From Escherichia phage FL23: a DNA stretch of 64,000 nucleotides. Positions 17,252 through 47,144 of this stretch are shown piece by piece. Every line of letters starts with the position of its first letter. The stretch's first letter is position 1. Both the position numbers and the translations under genes were made by a program. The stretch is from sequence record PP400787; one strand, given 5' to 3'. The notes under the pieces are model-generated. The model saw only the letters and a list, made by a program, of their open reading frames with translations, was not told where the DNA came from and did no database searches.

Positions 17252-17271
17252 AATAACGCGTGGCGGAAAAT

Positions 17272-17619
17272 ATGAATTTTAATTATTACCCTATTCTATT
17301 AGAAAAAGACATGAAACAGCCAAAATGGCAAGGTCCTCAGTTTATTAAAGGTGTCTATCAATTAGTAGTTCCTAAAGACAAGATTTATAGCAGTTGTTTC
17401 ACTGAATCCGCTTGCAGTATTTTCGGTAATAGTTCTCCGTATTGGAATTTTGACATAAAGCTGGATAGAAATATCGATATTTGGTTGAAAGCTATGGATA
17501 TTGGTAATATCACGTTTGATGAGAATAATTATCATATTATTGGTCGCTTTTCCAAACGCGGTAAAGAATTATATTTCACGCCTGAAATTGAGAGAAAATT
17601 TGATGCTAAACCGTATTGA
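17272..17619 (+). CDS. hypothetical protein (115 aa) in an insertion between frd and td
   Basis: ATG 17272 (ORF track GTG 17260); no recognised domain. Confidence 0.5.
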   Translation: MNFNYYPILLEKDMKQPKWQGPQFIKGVYQLVVPKDKIYSSCFTESACSIFGNSSPYWNFDIKLDRNIDIWLKAMDIGNITFDENNYHIIGRFSKRGKELYFTPEIERKFDAKPY

Positions 17620-18212: not shown

Positions 18213-19228
18213 TAATTGAGGCCTGAGTATAAGGTGACTTATACTTGTAATCTATCTAAACGGGGAACCTCTCTAGTAGACAATCCCGTGCTAAATTGTA
18301 GGACTGCCCTTTAATAAATACTTCTATATTTAAAGAGGTATTTATGAAAAGCGGAATTTATCAGATTAAAAATACTTTAAACAATAAAGTATATGTAGGA
18401 AGTGCTAAAGATTTTGAAAAGAGATGGAAGAGGCATTTTAAAGATTTAGAAAAAGGATGCCATTCTTCTATAAAGCTTCAGAGGTCTTTTAACAAACATG
18501 GTAATGTGTTTGAATGTTCTATTTTGGAAGAAATTCCATATGAGAAAGATTTGATTATTGAACGAGAAAATTTTTGGATTAAAGAGCTTAATTCTAAAAT
18601 TAATGGATACAATATTGCTGATGCAACGTTTGGTGATACATGTTCTACGCATCCATTAAAAGAAGAAATTATTAAGAAACGTTCTGAAACTGTTAAAGCT
18701 AAGATGCTTAAACTTGGACCTGATGGTCGGAAAGCTCTTTACAGTAAACCCGGAAGTAAAAACGGGCGTTGGAATCCAGAAACCCATAAGTTTTGTAAGT
18801 GCGGTGTTCGCATACAAACTTCTGCTTATACTTGTAGTAAATGCAGAAATCGTTCAGGTGAAAATAATTCATTCTTTAATCATAAGCATTCAGACATAAC
18901 TAAATCTAAAATATCAGAAAAGATGAAAGGTAAAAAGCCTAGTAATATTAAAAAGATTTCATGTGATGGGGTTATTTTTGATTGTGCAGCAGATGCAGCT
19001 AGACATTTTAAAATTTCGTCTGGATTAGTTACTTATCGTGTAAAATCTGATAAATGGAATTGGTTCTACATAAATGCCTAACGACTATCCCTTTGGGGAG
19101 TAGGGTCAAGTGACTCGAAACGATAGACAACTTGCTTTAACAAGTTGGAGATATAGTCTGATCTGCATGGTGACATGCAGCTGGATATAATTCCGGGGTA
19201 AGATTAACGACCTTATCTGAACATAATG
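18213..19228 (+). mobile_element. group I self-splicing intron in td (1016 nt) carrying I-TevI
   Basis: P1/IGS gcctgag pairs with exon end cttgggt; core motifs gtagggtcaagtgactcgaaa and atatagtctgatctgcat; ends ...ctgaacataatg. Confidence 0.9.
18344..19081 (+). CDS. I-TevI: I-TevI GIY-YIG homing endonuclease (intron ORF)
   Basis: 245 aa; GIYQIKNTLNNKVYVGSAKDFEKRWKRH; C-terminal Zn finger and DNA-binding domain. Confidence 0.9.
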   Translation: MKSGIYQIKNTLNNKVYVGSAKDFEKRWKRHFKDLEKGCHSSIKLQRSFNKHGNVFECSILEEIPYEKDLIIERENFWIKELNSKINGYNIADATFGDTCSTHPLKEEIIKKRSETVKAKMLKLGPDGRKALYSKPGSKNGRWNPETHKFCKCGVRIQTSAYTCSKCRNRSGENNSFFNHKHSDITKSKISEKMKGKKPSNIKKISCDGVIFDCAADAARHFKISSGLVTYRVKSDKWNWFYINA

Positions 19229-19540
19229 CTTCCATTTAATATTGCATCATATGCTGCGTTAGTTCATATTGTAGCTAAGATGTGTAATCTTATCCCAGGA
19301 GATTTGATATTTTCTGGTGGTAATACTCATATCTATATGAATCACGTAGAACAATGTAAAGAAATTTTACGTCGTGAGCCTAAAGAACTGTGCGAACTTA
19401 AAATTGATTGGCCTATAGAGTTTGAAAATTGTGACACCGAAACACAGCTTTACTGGTTAACTGAATACATGAAACCGAAAGATTTTATCCTTGAAAATTA
19501 TGAATCGCATCCGGCAATTAAAGGGAAAATGGCAATATGA
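19229..19540 (+). CDS. td: thymidylate synthase, exon 2 (103 codons; spliced product 286 aa)
   Basis: In-frame continuation [21 protein letters not shown]...; frame verified across junction. Confidence 0.9.
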
Positions 19541-19800
19541 TTTTACGATTTAAAGATACTTCTGGCGTTGTTCTTTTTACACTTCCTAACCCAAGCGAGT
19601 TAGAAGTTCCAGGACCAGAACAGCCTATTATCATTTATGGTAAAAAATATTATACTCATAAAATGACTCGTGAGTATTTTGATAATAAAATTTCCACAGT
19701 TAAAACTTCTTCAGATTGTTACTATGATATTACTGTATTAACGGAAAAACAATATGACGAATTATCAACGCGCGGGCCGTCTATGCCAGGTAGTGAATAA
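19537..19800 (+). CDS. hypothetical protein (87 aa) between td and nrdA
   Basis: ATGA overlap with td stop. Confidence 0.5.
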
Positions 19801-20080
19801 ATATAAATCCGACTTTGATGTTAATATTCACCGTGGTACATTTTGGGGAAATTACGTCGGTAAAGATGCTGGCAGCCGGGAGGCTGCCATTGAATTATTC
19901 AAAAAAGATTTTATACGTCGAATTAAATCCGGAGAAATAACTAAAGCACATTTAGAGCCTTTACGTGGAATGAGGCTAGGATGCACATGTAAACCAAAGC
20001 CGTGTCATGGTGATATAATAGCTCATATAGTTAACCGATTGTTTAAAGACGATTTTCAAGTTGAGGACTTATGCAATTAA
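19754..20080 (+). CDS. DUF4326-like protein (C-terminal [12 protein letters not shown] signature)
   Basis: Motif recognition: WGNY... and L.C.C.P..CHGD; overlaps upstream ORF by 47 nt. Confidence 0.5.
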
Positions 20081-21504
20081 TTAATGTTATCAAAAGTAGT
20101 GGTGTTTCTCAGAGCTTTGACCCGCAAAAAATTATTAAAGTTTTATCTTGGGCAGCTGAGGGAACATCAGTAGATCCTTATGAATTATATGAAAATATTA
20201 AATCATATCTCCGTGATGGAATGACCACTGATGATATTCAGACTATTGTCATTAAGGCCGCTGCGAATTCTATTTCGGTTGAAGAACCTGATTATCAATA
20301 TGTAGCTGCACGCTGTTTAATGTTTGCTCTTCGTAAGCATGTTTATGGGCAGTATGAACCACGTTCATTTATTGACCATATTTCTTACTGTGTAAATGAA
20401 GGTAAATATGACCCTGAATTATTGTCAAAATATTCAGCAGAAGAAATTACATTTTTAGAATCAAAAATTAAGCACGAACGGGATATGGAATTTACTTATT
20501 CCGGGGCGATGCAATTAAAAGAAAAATATCTAGTTAAAGATAAAACCACTGGTCAAATTTATGAAACTCCGCAGTTTGCATTTATGACTATTGGAATGGC
20601 ACTGCATCAAGATGAACCTGTTGACAGATTAAAACATGTTATTCGTTTTTATGAAGCAGTATCTACTCGACAGATTTCACTGCCAACTCCTATTATGGCT
20701 GGTTGCCGTACTCCAACTCGACAGTTTAGTTCATGCGTTGTTATTGAAGCAGGTGATTCGCTGAAGTCTATCAATAAGGCTTCTGCTTCAATTGTTGAGT
20801 ATATTTCTAAACGAGCTGGAATTGGCATTAACGTTGGTATGATTCGTGCTGAAGGTTCTAAGATTGGCACAGGTGAAGTGCGTCATACTGGCGTTATTCC
20901 TTTTTGGAAACATTTTCAGACTGCTGTTAAATCATGCTCACAGGGTGGAATTCGTGGCGGCGCTGCTACTGCTTATTATCCTATTTGGCATTTGGAAGTT
21001 GAAAATCTTCTCGTTTTGAAAAATAACAAAGGCGTAGAAGAAAACCGTATCCGTCATATGGATTATGGCGTCCAGCTGAATGATTTGATGATGGAACGTT
21101 TTGGAAAGAACGACTACATCACTTTGTTCAGTCCACATGAAATGGGTGGCGAACTTTATTATTCTTATTTTAAAGACCAAGACCGTTTCCGTGAATTGTA
21201 CGAAGCAGCAGAAAAAGACCCTAATATTCGTAAAAAGCGTATTAAAGCTCGTGAACTATTTGAATTGCTCATGACTGAACGTTCAGGAACAGCAAGGATT
21301 TATGTACAGTTCATTGATAATACGAATAACTATACTCCGTTTATTCGTGAAAAGGCGCCTATTCGTCAGAGTAACTTGTGCTGTGAAATTGCTATTCCAA
21401 CAAATGATGTGAATAGCCAACAAACCCGTTTAATCAAAATTAAGAAGTCGGATGTAGCTAAGTTTTATGAAGCTAATCCTGGCGGTATAATTCAAAGCAA
21501 ATAA
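20071..21504 (+). CDS. nrdA: ribonucleotide reductase large subunit, N-terminal piece (nrdA-a)
   Basis: ATP-cone; FSSCVVIE (Cys225 equivalent); SNLCCEIAIPT (Asn/Cys/Glu active site); then 28 non-conserved codons to stop. Confidence 0.85.
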   Translation: MQLINVIKSSGVSQSFDPQKIIKVLSWAAEGTSVDPYELYENIKSYLRDGMTTDDIQTIVIKAAANSISVEEPDYQYVAARCLMFALRKHVYGQYEPRSFIDHISYCVNEGKYDPELLSKYSAEEITFLESKIKHERDMEFTYSGAMQLKEKYLVKDKTTGQIYETPQFAFMTIGMALHQDEPVDRLKHVIRFYEAVSTRQISLPTPIMAGCRTPTRQFSSCVVIEAGDSLKSINKASASIVEYISKRAGIGINVGMIRAEGSKIGTGEVRHTGVIPFWKHFQTAVKSCSQGGIRGGAATAYYPIWHLEVENLLVLKNNKGVEENRIRHMDYGVQLNDLMMERFGKNDYITLFSPHEMGGELYYSYFKDQDRFRELYEAAEKDPNIRKKRIKARELFELLMTERSGTARIYVQFIDNTNNYTPFIREKAPIRQSNLCCEIAIPTNDVNSQQTRLIKIKKSDVAKFYEANPGGIIQSK

Positions 21505-21549
21505 AGTACACAGACCGTTAATAAATAATCCATAACAAGAGGAAAAGTT

Positions 21550-22260
21550 ATGGATTATTTTAAAATTTACAATAACCTTATTTCTAAAGCTAAGAATAGA
21601 AAATTAGATTGCTATACCGAATCACACCATATTATACCTCTGTGTATTGGTGGTTCTGATACAAAGGAAAACCTGGTAGATTTGACACCAGAAGAGCATT
21701 ACATAGCTCATCAATTATTAGTAAAGATATATCCAGATAATCATAAATTGATATTTGCCGCTAATATGATGTGTGTTTATTCTAAAGATAATATTGAACG
21801 AAAGAACACCAATAAACGCCATGGGTGGCTTAGAAGAAAATTGGCTATTTCTGTATCTGAAAATAATAAAGGCAAACCAGCTTGGAACAAAGGTATTCCT
21901 ATGTCTCCAGAAGTTAAATCTCGACTTCAAACATCTTGGGTGTTTACATTTCCGGATGGTCATGAGGAAATTCATCGAGGTCTTAACGAATTTTGTAAAG
22001 AGCATAATTTAAATCCATCTGCAATGTCAGCCGTTTGTAAAGGTAAACGGTCGCATCACAAAGGATTTAAGTGTAAGAAATTGGATAAGATTTCAGAGCT
22101 TGATAATTTAGTTTTCGTCAGTAAACCTCATCCAAAGGGATTAAAACCCCATAACTTAATTGCTGTAAAAATAAACGGTATAGAATATCAATCAATACAT
22201 CGAGCATCTAAAGCTTTAGGAATTACTAGAAAAAAGGTAGAAGAATTAAATGAATATTGA
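21550..22260 (+). CDS. HNH homing endonuclease inserted within nrdA (MobE-like)
   Basis: CYTESHHIIPLCIGGSDTKENLVDLTPEEHYIAH HNH motif; SD GAGGA; stop overlaps nrdA-b start. Confidence 0.8.
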   Translation: MDYFKIYNNLISKAKNRKLDCYTESHHIIPLCIGGSDTKENLVDLTPEEHYIAHQLLVKIYPDNHKLIFAANMMCVYSKDNIERKNTNKRHGWLRRKLAISVSENNKGKPAWNKGIPMSPEVKSRLQTSWVFTFPDGHEEIHRGLNEFCKEHNLNPSAMSAVCKGKRSHHKGFKCKKLDKISELDNLVFVSKPHPKGLKPHNLIAVKINGIEYQSIHRASKALGITRKKVEELNEY

Positions 22261-23239
22261 TTATGAATTTGTAGATGAATTTTACGAAGATGATGAGTAT
22301 ACTACAATAAAAGTTATTGAAAACAAGGGAGAAGTGGGGCTTTGTACTCTCTCTGCATTCGTACTAGATAATTTTGACTGGCAAGACCAAGATAAAATTA
22401 ATGAATTGGCAGAAGTTCAAGTTCGTGCTCTTGATAATCTTTTGGATTACCAAGGATATCCAGTTCCTGAAGCAGAAAAAGCTAAAAAGCGTCGTAACCT
22501 TGGTGTAGGTGTTACTAACTATGCAGCTTGGCTGGCAAGTAACTTTGCTTCTTATGAAGATGCTAACGATTTAACACATGAACTATTTGAGAGATTACAG
22601 TATGGACTCATTAAAGCATCCATTAAGCTCGCCAAAGAAAAAGGACCTTGCGAATATTATTCAGACACTCGTTGGTCTCGAGGCGAACTACCTATCGACT
22701 GGTACAATAAAAAGATTGACCAAATCGCAGCTCCAAAATACGTTTGTGACTGGTCGTCGCTGCGGGAAGACCTTAAGCTCTTTGGCATCCGTAATAGCAC
22801 ATTATCAGCACTTATGCCATGTGAGTCATCTTCCCAAGTTTCTAACAGTACAAACGGTATCGAGCCTCCACGTGGACCGGTAAGTGTTAAAGAATCAAAA
22901 GAGGGTTCATTTAATCAAGTTGTTCCGAATATTGAGCATAACATAGACCTTTACGACTATACATGGAAATTAGCTAAGAAAGGTAATAAACCTTATCTTA
23001 CGCAGGTAGCTATTATGCTGAAATGGGTATGTCAATCGGCTTCAGCGAATACATATTATGACCCACAGATTTTTCCAAAAGGAAAGGTTCCAATGTCAAT
23101 AATGATTGATGATATGCTATACGGATGGTATTATGGCATTAAAAATTTCTATTATCATAATACCCGCGATGGTTCTGGTACTGATGATTATGAAATAGAA
23201 ACTCCAAAAGCAGATGATTGTTCATCCTGTAAATTATGA
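22250..23239 (+). CDS. nrdA: ribonucleotide reductase large subunit, C-terminal piece (nrdA-b)
   Basis: Own ATG; resumes at GLCTLSAF (second active-site Cys) and runs to the C-terminal DDCSSCKL redox tail. Confidence 0.85.
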   Translation: MNIDYEFVDEFYEDDEYTTIKVIENKGEVGLCTLSAFVLDNFDWQDQDKINELAEVQVRALDNLLDYQGYPVPEAEKAKKRRNLGVGVTNYAAWLASNFASYEDANDLTHELFERLQYGLIKASIKLAKEKGPCEYYSDTRWSRGELPIDWYNKKIDQIAAPKYVCDWSSLREDLKLFGIRNSTLSALMPCESSSQVSNSTNGIEPPRGPVSVKESKEGSFNQVVPNIEHNIDLYDYTWKLAKKGNKPYLTQVAIMLKWVCQSASANTYYDPQIFPKGKVPMSIMIDDMLYGWYYGIKNFYYHNTRDGSGTDDYEIETPKADDCSSCKL

Positions 23240-24848
23240 TATAATTACCACAAGGATGTGGTTAACTAAGAATAACGCTATGTTTGATAATATATACAAA
23301 AACGGAAAGTTTCTTCCATTTGGAGAAGAAAAACTTAAATCTAGACTAACAGAAGAAGATAAAGCTCTTCTAACTGATGGAATAGATTTTAAGCTCAATG
23401 TGTTCCAAATTATGGAAGGCATTGACATTAACGATCTAAAATGTGCAGTTTGTGGAAATTTCATTTCTCTGAAAACGGCAAAGAAACGTGTATTTCCAGC
23501 AACATGTAGTAAATCCTGCGCAGGGATATTTTTCGCGGATAAGAGAATTCAAAGCCGTGATACAAATTTTGGCGGAAAAGAAAAATATAAAAAATATTTG
23601 TCTGAACTTCAACGCAAAAATTCTTTAGAAAAATATGGAACAACTCATCAAAAAATTTCAAGAAATAAAAATAGAAAAACTTTAATTGAACGATATGGGG
23701 TAACGCATAATTCACAATTAGAAAGTGTGAAAGAAGCGAGAAAAGTTATAGAAAACGGTAAATCAGTTGATATTCTGAATTCTAGAAAATCTCGCGAAAA
23801 ATCTAAGAAGACTAAATTAAATTGGACTGAAGAATATAAGGCATCGTTATATTCATCTATAGGAAAATCTATTAAAAATAACGGTCATATTAATCATGAT
23901 ATACTAGATAAAATCAATTACAAAATTTCTATAGAAGAACTACAACAATTAGCAAATTGTTCTCGGATGACGGCTTATAGAGCTCTTTCATCCAAAGGAC
24001 TAATTGACGTTCATTATACTCAAAGTTCTATAGAGCAATTCATTTTAGATCTAGGATTTGATTGCGTAGAAACTAGAAAAATTATTCCTCCGTATGAATT
24101 AGATATTTACATTCCTGAGAAAAAATTGGCTATAGAATACGATGGAATTTATTGGCATTCTAGCGGGTCAAAGGAAACAGATAAAATTAAAGAAACTTAT
24201 CATTTGATGAAGACAGAGATGTGTGAAGCACAAGGAATTCAATTACTTCACATCTTCGAAAATGAATGGATTGATGATACAAAAAGAGAGATCTGGAAAT
24301 CCATTATAAAGCATAAATTAGGATTATCAGAAAGAATACCAGCCCGAAAATGCAAAGCGCGTTTTGTTAATAAGGATGAGGCAAAAGAATTTATTAATAA
24401 GAATCATCTTCAAGGATTTTGCTCGGGAGCTCATACGTATAAAGGACTTTATTACAATAATGAGTTAGTTCAAATTATTTCTATCGGTAAATCTAGATAT
24501 AGCTCAGGTGATGAACTTTTAAGGATGTGTTCAAAATTAGGGATTTGTGTTGTAGGAGGAGCCTCAAAATTATTAAAAGGAATTAATTGTCTATCTTATG
24601 GCAATCGAAGATGGTGCAGTACATTATCAAATGTTTATGACTCTGTCATGGAATTTAGTCATATCTCTGAGCCGTGTTATTGGTATGTCGATAAAGGAGA
24701 GGTATTTCACCGCTCGAGCTATATGAAACATAAGCTTAAAAACAAGCTTAAAAATTATGATGATACAATAACTGAAGTAGAAAATTGTTATGCAAATGGT
24801 CTTAGAAGAATCTGGGACTGTGGAAATTTAGTTTACAGGACAAAATAA
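23214..24848 (+). CDS. large multi-domain putative nuclease (Zn ribbon, repeated YG(T/V)TH motifs, Vsr/DUF559-like core, C-terminal domain)
   Basis: CAVCGN...CSKSC; EKYGTTHQ/ERYGVTHNSQ repeats; LAIEYDGIYWH...LLHIFENEW; start ambiguous (23214, 23256 or 23280). Confidence 0.55.
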   Translation: MIVHPVNYDIITTRMWLTKNNAMFDNIYKNGKFLPFGEEKLKSRLTEEDKALLTDGIDFKLNVFQIMEGIDINDLKCAVCGNFISLKTAKKRVFPATCSKSCAGIFFADKRIQSRDTNFGGKEKYKKYLSELQRKNSLEKYGTTHQKISRNKNRKTLIERYGVTHNSQLESVKEARKVIENGKSVDILNSRKSREKSKKTKLNWTEEYKASLYSSIGKSIKNNGHINHDILDKINYKISIEELQQLANCSRMTAYRALSSKGLIDVHYTQSSIEQFILDLGFDCVETRKIIPPYELDIYIPEKKLAIEYDGIYWHSSGSKETDKIKETYHLMKTEMCEAQGIQLLHIFENEWIDDTKREIWKSIIKHKLGLSERIPARKCKARFVNKDEAKEFINKNHLQGFCSGAHTYKGLYYNNELVQIISIGKSRYSSGDELLRMCSKLGICVVGGASKLLKGINCLSYGNRRWCSTLSNVYDSVMEFSHISEPCYWYVDKGEVFHRSSYMKHKLKNKLKNYDDTITEVENCYANGLRRIWDCGNLVYRTK

Positions 24849-46614: not shown

Positions 46615-47144
46615 TCAAATAATCCAATAATATTGCCAATTCCAGTTATTGGACCATTAGGGCCAGGAATTGCTAAAGTTGTAAAAATATCATTTGCCCA
46701 TTTTAAAACGAATGCTGGCATCTCAAGAAAATTAATTTCTTTAACTTCATCATTGACCTTAAGCAAGCATTTAGATAACATATCGCTCACCGTTAAAAAT
46801 TGTTCAAATTTTCCAGGAGGTCTAAAATAAAATGTATTTCCTTGGTATTGAAATTCTAATCTTTGGCATACATAAACATCATTAATGTCATAAGTATAGC
46901 CATCTATTTCTTTACGAGATTTAATCTTTCCATTAAATTCCAATAAATGAATAGAAACGAAATCAACTTCTGCCGGTGATAAATTCGGACAAATAGAATC
47001 AATAAGAAGTTTTAAATTTTCATCAGGACCTTTAACATCCTTTAAAATGTTATAATGTTTAAGACCCATTTTAGGAATAGAAACTTCTTTATTACTTATT
47101 GGAAGAACTACTTTCTTCAGTGGTAGTATCAGATTTAAATTCAT
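46611..47144 (-). CDS. 28: gp28 baseplate hub distal subunit
   Basis: 177 aa; overlaps the gene 27 3' end by 53 nt. Confidence 0.8.

Follow-up and report, generated by a model that had tools for sequence, protein, structure and literature searches.

The 47-nt overlap of nrdA.2 and nrdA.1 in Escherichia phage FL23 (PP400787) is very probably a derived, Tequatrovirus-specific junction between two early td-nrdA operon genes, independent of each other and both translated, one encoding a DUF5496 protein (NrdA.2) and the other a DUF4326 protein (NrdA.1). As a whole, that is, with the biochemical function proposed below for NrdA.1 joined to this gene arrangement, the best explanation of the locus is a likely one. 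The arrangement itself is already known: the nrdA.2/nrdA.1 pair stands in the reference T4 annotation, and a T4 record (OL964735.1) calls the nrdA.1 product “DUF4326 domain-containing protein”. What the present analysis adds is the origin of the overlap through loss of an ancestral stop/start junction and the observation that constraint is weakest in the shared stretch; it also brings together the published evidence for both proteins, which are found at very different levels, and the mis-annotation of nrdA.1 in some deposited genomes.

The stretch of DNA analysed (the window, 64,000 nt) matches Escherichia phage FL44, a Tequatrovirus of the Straboviridae (PP400790.1), with 100% identity over 1.2 kb, and several hundred T4-type genomes share 95–99% identity with it. 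The gene order on the plus strand is frd, a 119-aa ORF, td exon 1, the td intron ORF for I-TevI, td exon 2, nrdA.2, nrdA.1 and nrdA, the last being split in the present phage by an HNH endonuclease ORF (Table 1). A preliminary description of this DNA had placed between td and nrdA two ORFs that share 47 nt in different frames. Both the coordinates and the position are correct, with nrdA.1 lying in the +1 frame relative to nrdA.2 and nrdA starting at 20071; the start of nrdA.2, for its part, overlaps the td stop (ATGA). The same description regarded the overlap as unusually long, and the deposited annotation bears this out: among 36 same-strand overlapping junctions in the window, mostly of 1 or 4 nt, just five exceed 20 nt (53, 47, 29, 26 and 23 nt, the second being nrdA.2/nrdA.1). 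The 53-nt case involves two baseplate-hub genes, which we take to be those of gp27 and gp28.

Table 1. Features of the td-nrdA.2-nrdA.1-nrdA region (positions in the 64,000-nt window).
Feature	Position	Strand	Family or remark
td exon 2	19226-19540	+	
nrdA.2, 87 aa, DUF5496	19537..19800	+	Pfam PF17600, phrog_2458
GGA, weak Shine-Dalgarno-like, 8 nt 5' of the nrdA.1 ATG	19743..19745	+	sequence reading; putative function
nrdA.1, 108 aa, DUF4326 domain at residues 12-90	19754..20080	+	Pfam PF14216, phrog_464
Out-of-frame overlap, 47 nt: NrdA.2 residues 73-87 and stop; NrdA.1 residues 1-15 and most of codon 16	19754..19800	+	
GTGAATAA, NrdA.1 codons V14-N15 and first two bases of K16	19793..19800	+	
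DUF4326 signature C77-x-C79-x-P81-x2-C84-H85-G86-D87	19982..20014	+	
GAGGA, putative Shine-Dalgarno of nrdA, within the NrdA.1 C-terminal “VEDL” codons	20063..20067	+	sequence reading
nrdA.1/nrdA start overlap, 10 nt	20071..20080	+	0 variable sites among 12 Tequatroviruses

Both ORFs give strong family profile matches in addition to their PHROG assignments. NrdA.2 matches DUF5496 over its entire length (positions 1–87 of 87; 2.7e-60, 200.9 bits against a threshold of 27), and NrdA.1 aligns through residues 12–90 with positions 2–81 of the 82 in PF14216 (E = 1.3e-21; 77.5 bits against a gathering threshold of 25), so that the DUF4326 membership put forward earlier, together with the profile check proposed for it, came out positive. 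The FWGNY element on which that assignment had partly leaned is present at residues 30–34, within an N-terminal block D-x2-I-x-R...[WF]-G-N-P represented here by D22, I25, R27, W31, G32 and N33, with P34 changed to Y in the clade. The signature said to end the ORF is likewise there, at residues 74–87, but 21 residues still follow it. All of C77, C79, P81, C84, H85, G86 and D87 of the C-x-C-x-P-x2-C-H-[GA]-D motif are retained, each being found in 92–99% of 154 diverse domains. NrdA.1 thus carries the full domain with every family-wide invariant residue (D22, I25, R27, G32, N33, L70, L75, C77, C79, P81, C84, H85, G86 and D87) and, like most members of Pfam DUF4326 and phrog_464, is a stand-alone protein of ~100 aa. 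It differs from them in traits of the Tequatrovirus clade, namely WGNY in place of the common WGNP, a 7-residue N-terminal extension and a Cys11 that is specific to T4-like phages. A C-terminal E-D-L/I motif is also kept in T4-like homologs, though it lies outside the Pfam domain.

Comparison with T4, as had been advised, identifies an orthologous pair at ~96% identity (96.6% for NrdA.2), consisting of nrdA.1 (NP_049846, UniProt P32279, Y14A_BPT4) and nrdA.2 (NP_049847, P32280, Y14B_BPT4). The order td-nrdA.2-nrdA.1-nrdA, the lengths of 87 and 108 aa and the overlaps of 47 and 10 nt are the same, the 47-nt overlap following from the coordinates in NC_000866 (nrdA.1 at 142671-142997, nrdA.2 at 142951-143214). 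The two genes show point differences only, clustered in the overlap, where the T4 NrdA.1 N-terminus is MTNYSSVGRLCR and that of the present phage is a different version of 12 residues; in addition, a 20-nt spacer separates td from nrdA.2 in T4, whereas the present phage has the ATGA overlap.

These matches bear directly on the idea of an annotation artefact, with the upstream ORF mis-called or nrdA.1 unexpressed. It can draw on deposits that leave nrdA.1 out (SHFML-11 and ZCEC15) or shorten it (RB14), yet in genomes that fail to annotate nrdA.1 the ORF is intact and residues 13–108 are 100% identical, and mass spectrometry detects both T4 proteins; with strong profile matches for both ORFs as well, the probability of an artefact is practically negligible. 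The mis-called upstream ORF that the preliminary description had contemplated is contradicted by the full-length DUF5496 match and by the abundance of the T4 ortholog in infected cells, and an earlier end of this ORF by the fact that the TAA at 19798-19800 is its first in-frame stop.

The nrdA.1 ATG, the nrdA.2 TAA and the spacing between them are kept in all 12 Tequatroviruses compared, while the sequence they enclose varies more than any other stretch of either gene. Variable sites amount to 17 of 47 in the overlap (36%) versus 30 of 497 elsewhere (6%; Fisher p = 2e-8), and the changes hit every codon position in both frames. Nucleotide diversity reaches 0.126 in the overlap, compared with 0.039 for the remainder of nrdA.2 and 0.006 for the remainder of nrdA.1; it should be noted that part of the 12-genome sample was picked for low NrdA.2 identity, which inflates the diversity of nrdA.2 but not the contrast within it. 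The proteins give a similar picture. Residues 13–108 of NrdA.1 are identical in 12/12 genomes and the first 12 residues occur in six versions; mean pLDDT in the AlphaFold2 (AF2) model is 72 for residues 1–10 and 93–98 for residues 11–100; and alignments of distant NrdA.2 homologs reach only residues 76–81. Since variation in both genes peaks in the overlap, this is, as far as the sequences tell, a meeting of two loosely constrained tails, the C-terminal one of NrdA.2 and the N-terminal one of NrdA.1, without strong dual-coding constraint. The gene-within-gene arrangement suggested earlier does not hold, the overlap being terminal and free of nesting, and nested or overprinted genes were rejected for the same locus, as the two ORFs have just 47 nt (15 codons) in common, where both vary most.

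A functional dual-coding or recoding element, either a programmed +1 frameshift yielding an NrdA.2-NrdA.1 fusion or coupling of the two genes by an RNA structure, could be imagined from the +1 frame of nrdA.1 and from the retention of ATG, TAA and overlap length in 12/12 genomes. It is nevertheless very improbable, as conservation of both genes is lowest in the overlap and an ordinary junction suffices in related genera, while T4 proteomics quantifies NrdA.2 and NrdA.1 separately, ~80-fold apart. No stable RNA fold was found at the overlap (MFE −11 kcal/mol, less stable than the average of shuffled sequences, z = +1.05), and no slippery sequence conserved in the 12 Tequatroviruses: the sole homopolymer, an A5 run at 19745-19749, is broken in RB14, NiC89, RB68 and L005. 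With the run not conserved and no stable fold, a programmed frameshift site was discarded.

In-frame starts of nrdA.1 are ATG 19754, GTG 19793 (codon 14), ATG 19970 (codon 73) and TTG 20039. The earlier statement that the first of these is the only ATG is therefore right in substance, as 19754 is the sole start codon 5' of the conserved core, from the preceding in-frame stop to Cys11, but not to the letter, given the three further in-frame starts downstream. An alignment of 34 T4-like homologs has the core starting with Cys11, which never varies, and continuing as V-V-N-K-Y, where VNKY is invariant; before Cys11 the homologs differ in both length and sequence. Among the 12 Tequatrovirus sequences the bases next to ATG 19754 vary (GAC, GCC or GAA), the hexamer ACGGAA, which contains the GGA listed in Table 1, is identical in all, and the base three positions further on is A, G or C. 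The conserved ATG 19754 would accordingly be the defensible start of nrdA.1. In the RB14 record a GTG start is used, which shortens the overlap to just 8 nt; the corresponding segment GTGAATAA holds both the out-of-frame TAA that ends nrdA.2 and the GTG in question.

The origin of the overlap can be approached through the junctions of related phages, surveyed in 42 of 43 IMG/VR loci (L044, which is without the VNKY landmark, was left out). The order td-(variable)-nrdA.1-nrdA is kept in most T4-like genera sampled, and nrdA.2 is missing from most of them. In 32 of 36 scorable non-Tequatrovirus loci the junction 5' of nrdA.1 falls between −161 and +11 nt, which spans gaps and overlaps of up to 11 nt, typically 1 or 4 nt, and the N-termini at these junctions are mostly M-[KR]-x-C. 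Between td and nrdA, Mosigvirus p000y carries the same two families in an unchanged order, its nrdA.2-like gene (37% identity) being joined to nrdA.1 as GAGGACATGTAATGAAAATGTGC, with stop and start sharing one base. In contrast to the Tequatrovirus overlap, this is a canonical TAATG junction preceded by a GAGGA Shine-Dalgarno sequence, NrdA.1 starts with MKMC, and p000y is taken to represent the ancestral junction state. A DNA alignment indicates that Tequatrovirus is without 9 nt (“ATGAAAATG”) present in Mosigvirus and has 2 extra bases slightly upstream, a net difference of −7 nt.

These comparisons suggest the following course of events. The ancestral junction would have been of the TAATG type, with NrdA.1 starting M-K-x-C. 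A 9-nt deletion would then have taken out the nrdA.2 stop together with the nrdA.1 start, a nearby gain of 2 nt bringing the net change to −7 nt. Because the old stop/start was removed, nrdA.2, now out of register with the old TAA, would have read through ~6 extra codons to the out-of-frame TAA within GTG-AAT-AAA (V-N-K), and nrdA.1 would have acquired a new start, an ATG made by a TAC-to-TAT change 30 nt 5' of Cys11, where Mosigvirus has TAC. The polarity of the event, a deletion in Tequatrovirus rather than an insertion elsewhere, is suggested by the sequences of the outgroups.

Expression of both genes is documented in T4, where time-resolved proteomics of infection lists both proteins (Table S3, MaxQuant; PMC9697503). 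NrdA.2 (P32280) appears from the third time point on at ~2e9 LFQ, similar to NrdA, and NrdA.1 (P32279) from the fifth on at 1.6–3.3e7 LFQ (~2.6e7), ~80-fold below NrdA.2, although LFQ intensities between small proteins are only roughly comparable (PMC9697503). The former is classed as “early RNA, middle protein”, as is td, and the latter as “early RNA, late protein”, as are NrdA and NrdB (PMC9697503). Both T4 products thus clearly exist. The low level of NrdA.1 may follow from the placement of its start inside a heavily translated ORF and behind a weak GGA, which is consistent with the ~80-fold lower T4 signal, whereas nrdA itself would initiate at the strong GAGGA encoded by the NrdA.1 C-terminus. 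Sigma-70-like matches that could mark an internal nrdA.1 promoter occur at chance level, with 6 found versus 4.8 expected.

In a genome-wide CRISPRi-ART screen of T4, nrdA.1 and nrdA.2 were scored “Not Fit”, meaning that knock-down carries no fitness cost in the laboratory host, and nrdA, nrdB, td and frd were scored likewise (PMC11879866). Mosigvirus HX01 carries an nrdA.2-like gene between td and nrdA but no nrdA.1 there; a candidate second DUF4326 copy 5' of frd in this phage, a weak tblastn match (E = 0.064), proved to be FRD2. Given the T4 screen and the arrangement of HX01 without nrdA.1, an accessory function of NrdA.1, important in some hosts or conditions only, fits the data.

The position of nrdA.1 next to nrdA invites the view that its product is an accessory factor of ribonucleotide reductase (RNR), for instance in thiol redox or maturation support, co-made with NrdA. 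In many T4-like genera nrdA.1 lies directly 5' of nrdA and overlaps it, in another T4-like group (L041-L045) it overlaps the nrdB 3' end by 29–56 nt, and in the jumbo phage BF17 a DUF4326 gene is situated between nrdD and nrdG; NrdA.1 is, moreover, Cys-rich and shares its T4 expression class with NrdA and NrdB. This role is nonetheless improbable. Among 114 diverse viral DUF4326 loci gathered by a degenerate DNA motif scan, any RNR gene occurs in the DNA stretch retrieved in just 8, about half T4-like; the fusion partners of the domain elsewhere are of NAD/ADPr type and none is an RNR; HX01 retains nrdA without nrdA.1; and the NrdA.1 signal, ~80-fold under that of NrdA, is far from stoichiometric. 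When 760 ORFs neighbouring 90 diverse viral loci were clustered by BLAST, each cluster spanned at most 5 of the loci. Since RNR genes accompany only 8 of the 114 loci and no family recurs in more than 5 of 90, the link to RNR characterizes the clade and does not hold for the family at large. The neighbour clusters included a T4 RNase H-like exonuclease, RtcB and GIY-YIG proteins.

DUF4326 reaches far beyond this clade. At E ≤ 1e-3 the family comprises 12,035 cluster representatives (clusters counted at 50% identity), found across phages, archaeal viruses and giant viruses. The AF2 model of NrdA.1, built with 98 homologs, has a pLDDT of 92.7 (an earlier run with 34 close homologs, at pLDDT 68, was set aside) and predicts short strands at residues 12–15 and 74–77 and helices at 42–59, 64–70 and 85–96. 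The C77-D87 motif would form the loop that joins strand 74–77 to helix 85–96, with the Cys at the strand end. Invariant polar residues of the family are D22, R27, N33, C77, C79, C84, H85 and D87. In 20 multidomain relatives scanned, the domain is combined with SLOG/DprA-like (6), NADAR (5), TIR (1), DNA polymerase A (1), T7-like RNA polymerase (1) and DUF4325 (1) domains, or occurs in tandem (3). This fusion pattern agrees with an observation of the Aravind laboratory, whose predictions are published (PMC9503650, PMC7824862); DUF4326 has been proposed to belong to a rhodanese-phosphatase superfamily, with predicted action on ribose-attached phosphates (PMC9503650).

It may tentatively be proposed, following that laboratory, that NrdA.1 is a small stand-alone enzyme that binds and hydrolyses a ribose-attached phosphate in an NAD/ADP-ribose-derived nucleotide or a breakdown product of one. 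Catalysis would proceed through the C-x-C-x-P-x2-C-H-G-D loop together with D22, R27 and N33, and the role of the enzyme would be accessory, dispensable in the laboratory and co-expressed with the phage nucleotide-synthesis genes. In the model NrdA.1 resembles phosphatases of the rhodanese/Cdc25/PTP type in having a conserved Cys that ends a beta-strand and leads through a short loop into a helix. It departs from the rhodanese-phosphatases in the loop itself, which reads C-T-C-K-P-K-P-C-H, without Arg, and not the C-X4/5-R signature. Neither the single protein nor a profile found anything below E = 0.3 in sequence searches of the PDB, and Foldseek gave no PDB match for the model and only other DUF4326 proteins in BFVD; similarity of the model to solved rhodanese-phosphatase members was not significant. 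Homology of DUF4326 to NADAR (PF08719) or SLOG, with hhalign probabilities of 0.1–0.2%, was rejected.

The main rival to a hydrolase is a structural zinc site: NrdA.1 may be a small zinc-binding module in which C77, C79, C84 and H85 (or D87) hold a structural metal, serving as a nucleotide- or nucleic-acid-binding adaptor or regulator. The three Cys and one His, arranged as C-x-C-x4-C-H, are 98–99% conserved, and such a module would also accord with the missing Arg, the fusions to DNA polymerase A and T7-like RNA polymerase, and the want of a significant structural match to solved enzymes. It is, however, rather unlikely, as the adjacent C84 and H85 would be awkward co-ligands for one metal, the additional invariant polar residues D22, R27, N33 and D87 resemble an active or binding site, and the commonest fusion partners, SLOG, NADAR and TIR, are small-molecule nucleotide domains.

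For annotation, the pair serves as a caution: because the overlap is long, some Tequatrovirus deposits drop nrdA.1 or use the GTG start, which deprives the protein of a conserved Cys. For evolution, the locus illustrates how one indel at a stop/start junction may create a long overlap by bringing a different start and stop into use, without dual-coding constraint. As to function, the question concerns the whole DUF4326 family and is not special to the nrdA.1 locus; the domain is very common in viruses, and T4 nrdA.1 is its most tractable member. It is intriguing, if somewhat doubtful, to suppose that DUF4326 constitutes a new catalytic fold without a solved relative, by which viruses of bacteria, archaea and eukaryotes dismantle NAD/ADP-ribose-derived molecules. 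If this were true, the targets of DUF4326 proteins would be immune signals, ADPr adducts or phosphorylated ribose remnants, and the low dose supplied in T4-like phages from the ribonucleotide-reductase operon would tie counter-defence or nucleotide-pool clean-up to dNTP synthesis.

The 47-nt overlap between nrdA.2 and nrdA.1 has counterparts both within the window and at related loci. Only one annotated same-strand overlap in the window is longer, that of 53 nt between a gene labelled "baseplate hub subunit" and one labelled "baseplate hub", a pair that we take to be gp27/gp28. Other DUF4326 loci also show long overlaps with ribonucleotide reductase genes: in one T4-like group (loci L041-L045) the DUF4326 gene starts 29-56 nt within the 3' end of nrdB, and in jumbo phage BF17 it lies between nrdD and nrdG, overlapping nrdG by 29 nt. 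Because of the overlap with nrdA.2, nrdA.1 has been annotated inconsistently: the RB14 record begins it at a GTG, giving a 95-aa product that loses the clade-invariant Cys11, while the SHFML-11 and ZCEC15 records leave it unannotated, the ORF being intact in both.

At its other end, nrdA.1 meets the translation signals of nrdA. The C-terminal "[IVL]-E-D-[LI]" of NrdA.1 lies beyond the Pfam domain boundary and is conserved in T4-like homologs. The GAGGA Shine-Dalgarno sequence of nrdA falls within the codons for this motif, whose conservation may therefore be due to ribosome binding at nrdA and not to a role in the NrdA.1 protein.

Features of the td-nrdB region and the longest annotated same-strand overlap in the window
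Feature	Position	Strand	Remarks
119-aa ORF	17260-17619	+	GTG start; between frd and td
td intron	18216-19225		carries I-TevI (ORF 18344-19081)
"[IVL]-E-D-[LI]" codons of nrdA.1	20056-20070	+	hold GAGGA of nrdA
nrdA, two-piece	20071-23239	+	
nrdA piece 1	20071-21504	+	ends at about barrel-domain position 221
HNH/NUMOD ORF	21550-22260	+	236 aa, I-HmuI-like homing endonuclease; between nrdA pieces
nrdA piece 2	22250-23239	+	barrel domain resumes at about 219
544-aa ORF	23214-24848	+	between nrdA and nrdB
Baseplate hub gene overlap	47092-47144	-	53 nt

The nrdA gene itself falls into two pieces and may be either a split gene or one with an intron; the homing-endonuclease ORF between the pieces runs on for 11 nt into the second, across its ATG. 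Of the 488 phage records that match, 34 carry this HNH/NUMOD insert. The arrangement is similar to that of nrdA in Aeromonas phage Aeh1, a case of "genes-in-pieces". An Rfam scan at the gathering threshold reported no intron at the split, and it also missed the td intron, so that its silence in the td-nrdA region is no argument against introns.

The neighbourhood of td and nrdA departs from that of T4 at two further points. A 119-aa ORF, given as a 115-aa version in the deposited record and without a match in a Pfam search, separates frd from td, two genes whose T4 counterparts directly overlap each other. The nrdA-nrdB interval, which in T4 holds mobE and nrdB.1, is occupied instead by a 544-aa ORF sharing its first 26 nt with the 3' end of nrdA; its sole match, to the REase_MTES_1575 nuclease domain, is weak and sub-threshold (22 bits against a cut-off of 38).

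Gene order between td and nrdA also varies among T4-like phages. In one such genome (L029, 4357-4611) the interval between nrdA.1 and nrdA holds a distant homolog of nrdA.2 (36% identity), placed downstream of nrdA.1, whereas in FL23 nrdA.2 lies upstream of it. The small gene has therefore changed position inside the td-nrdA gap.
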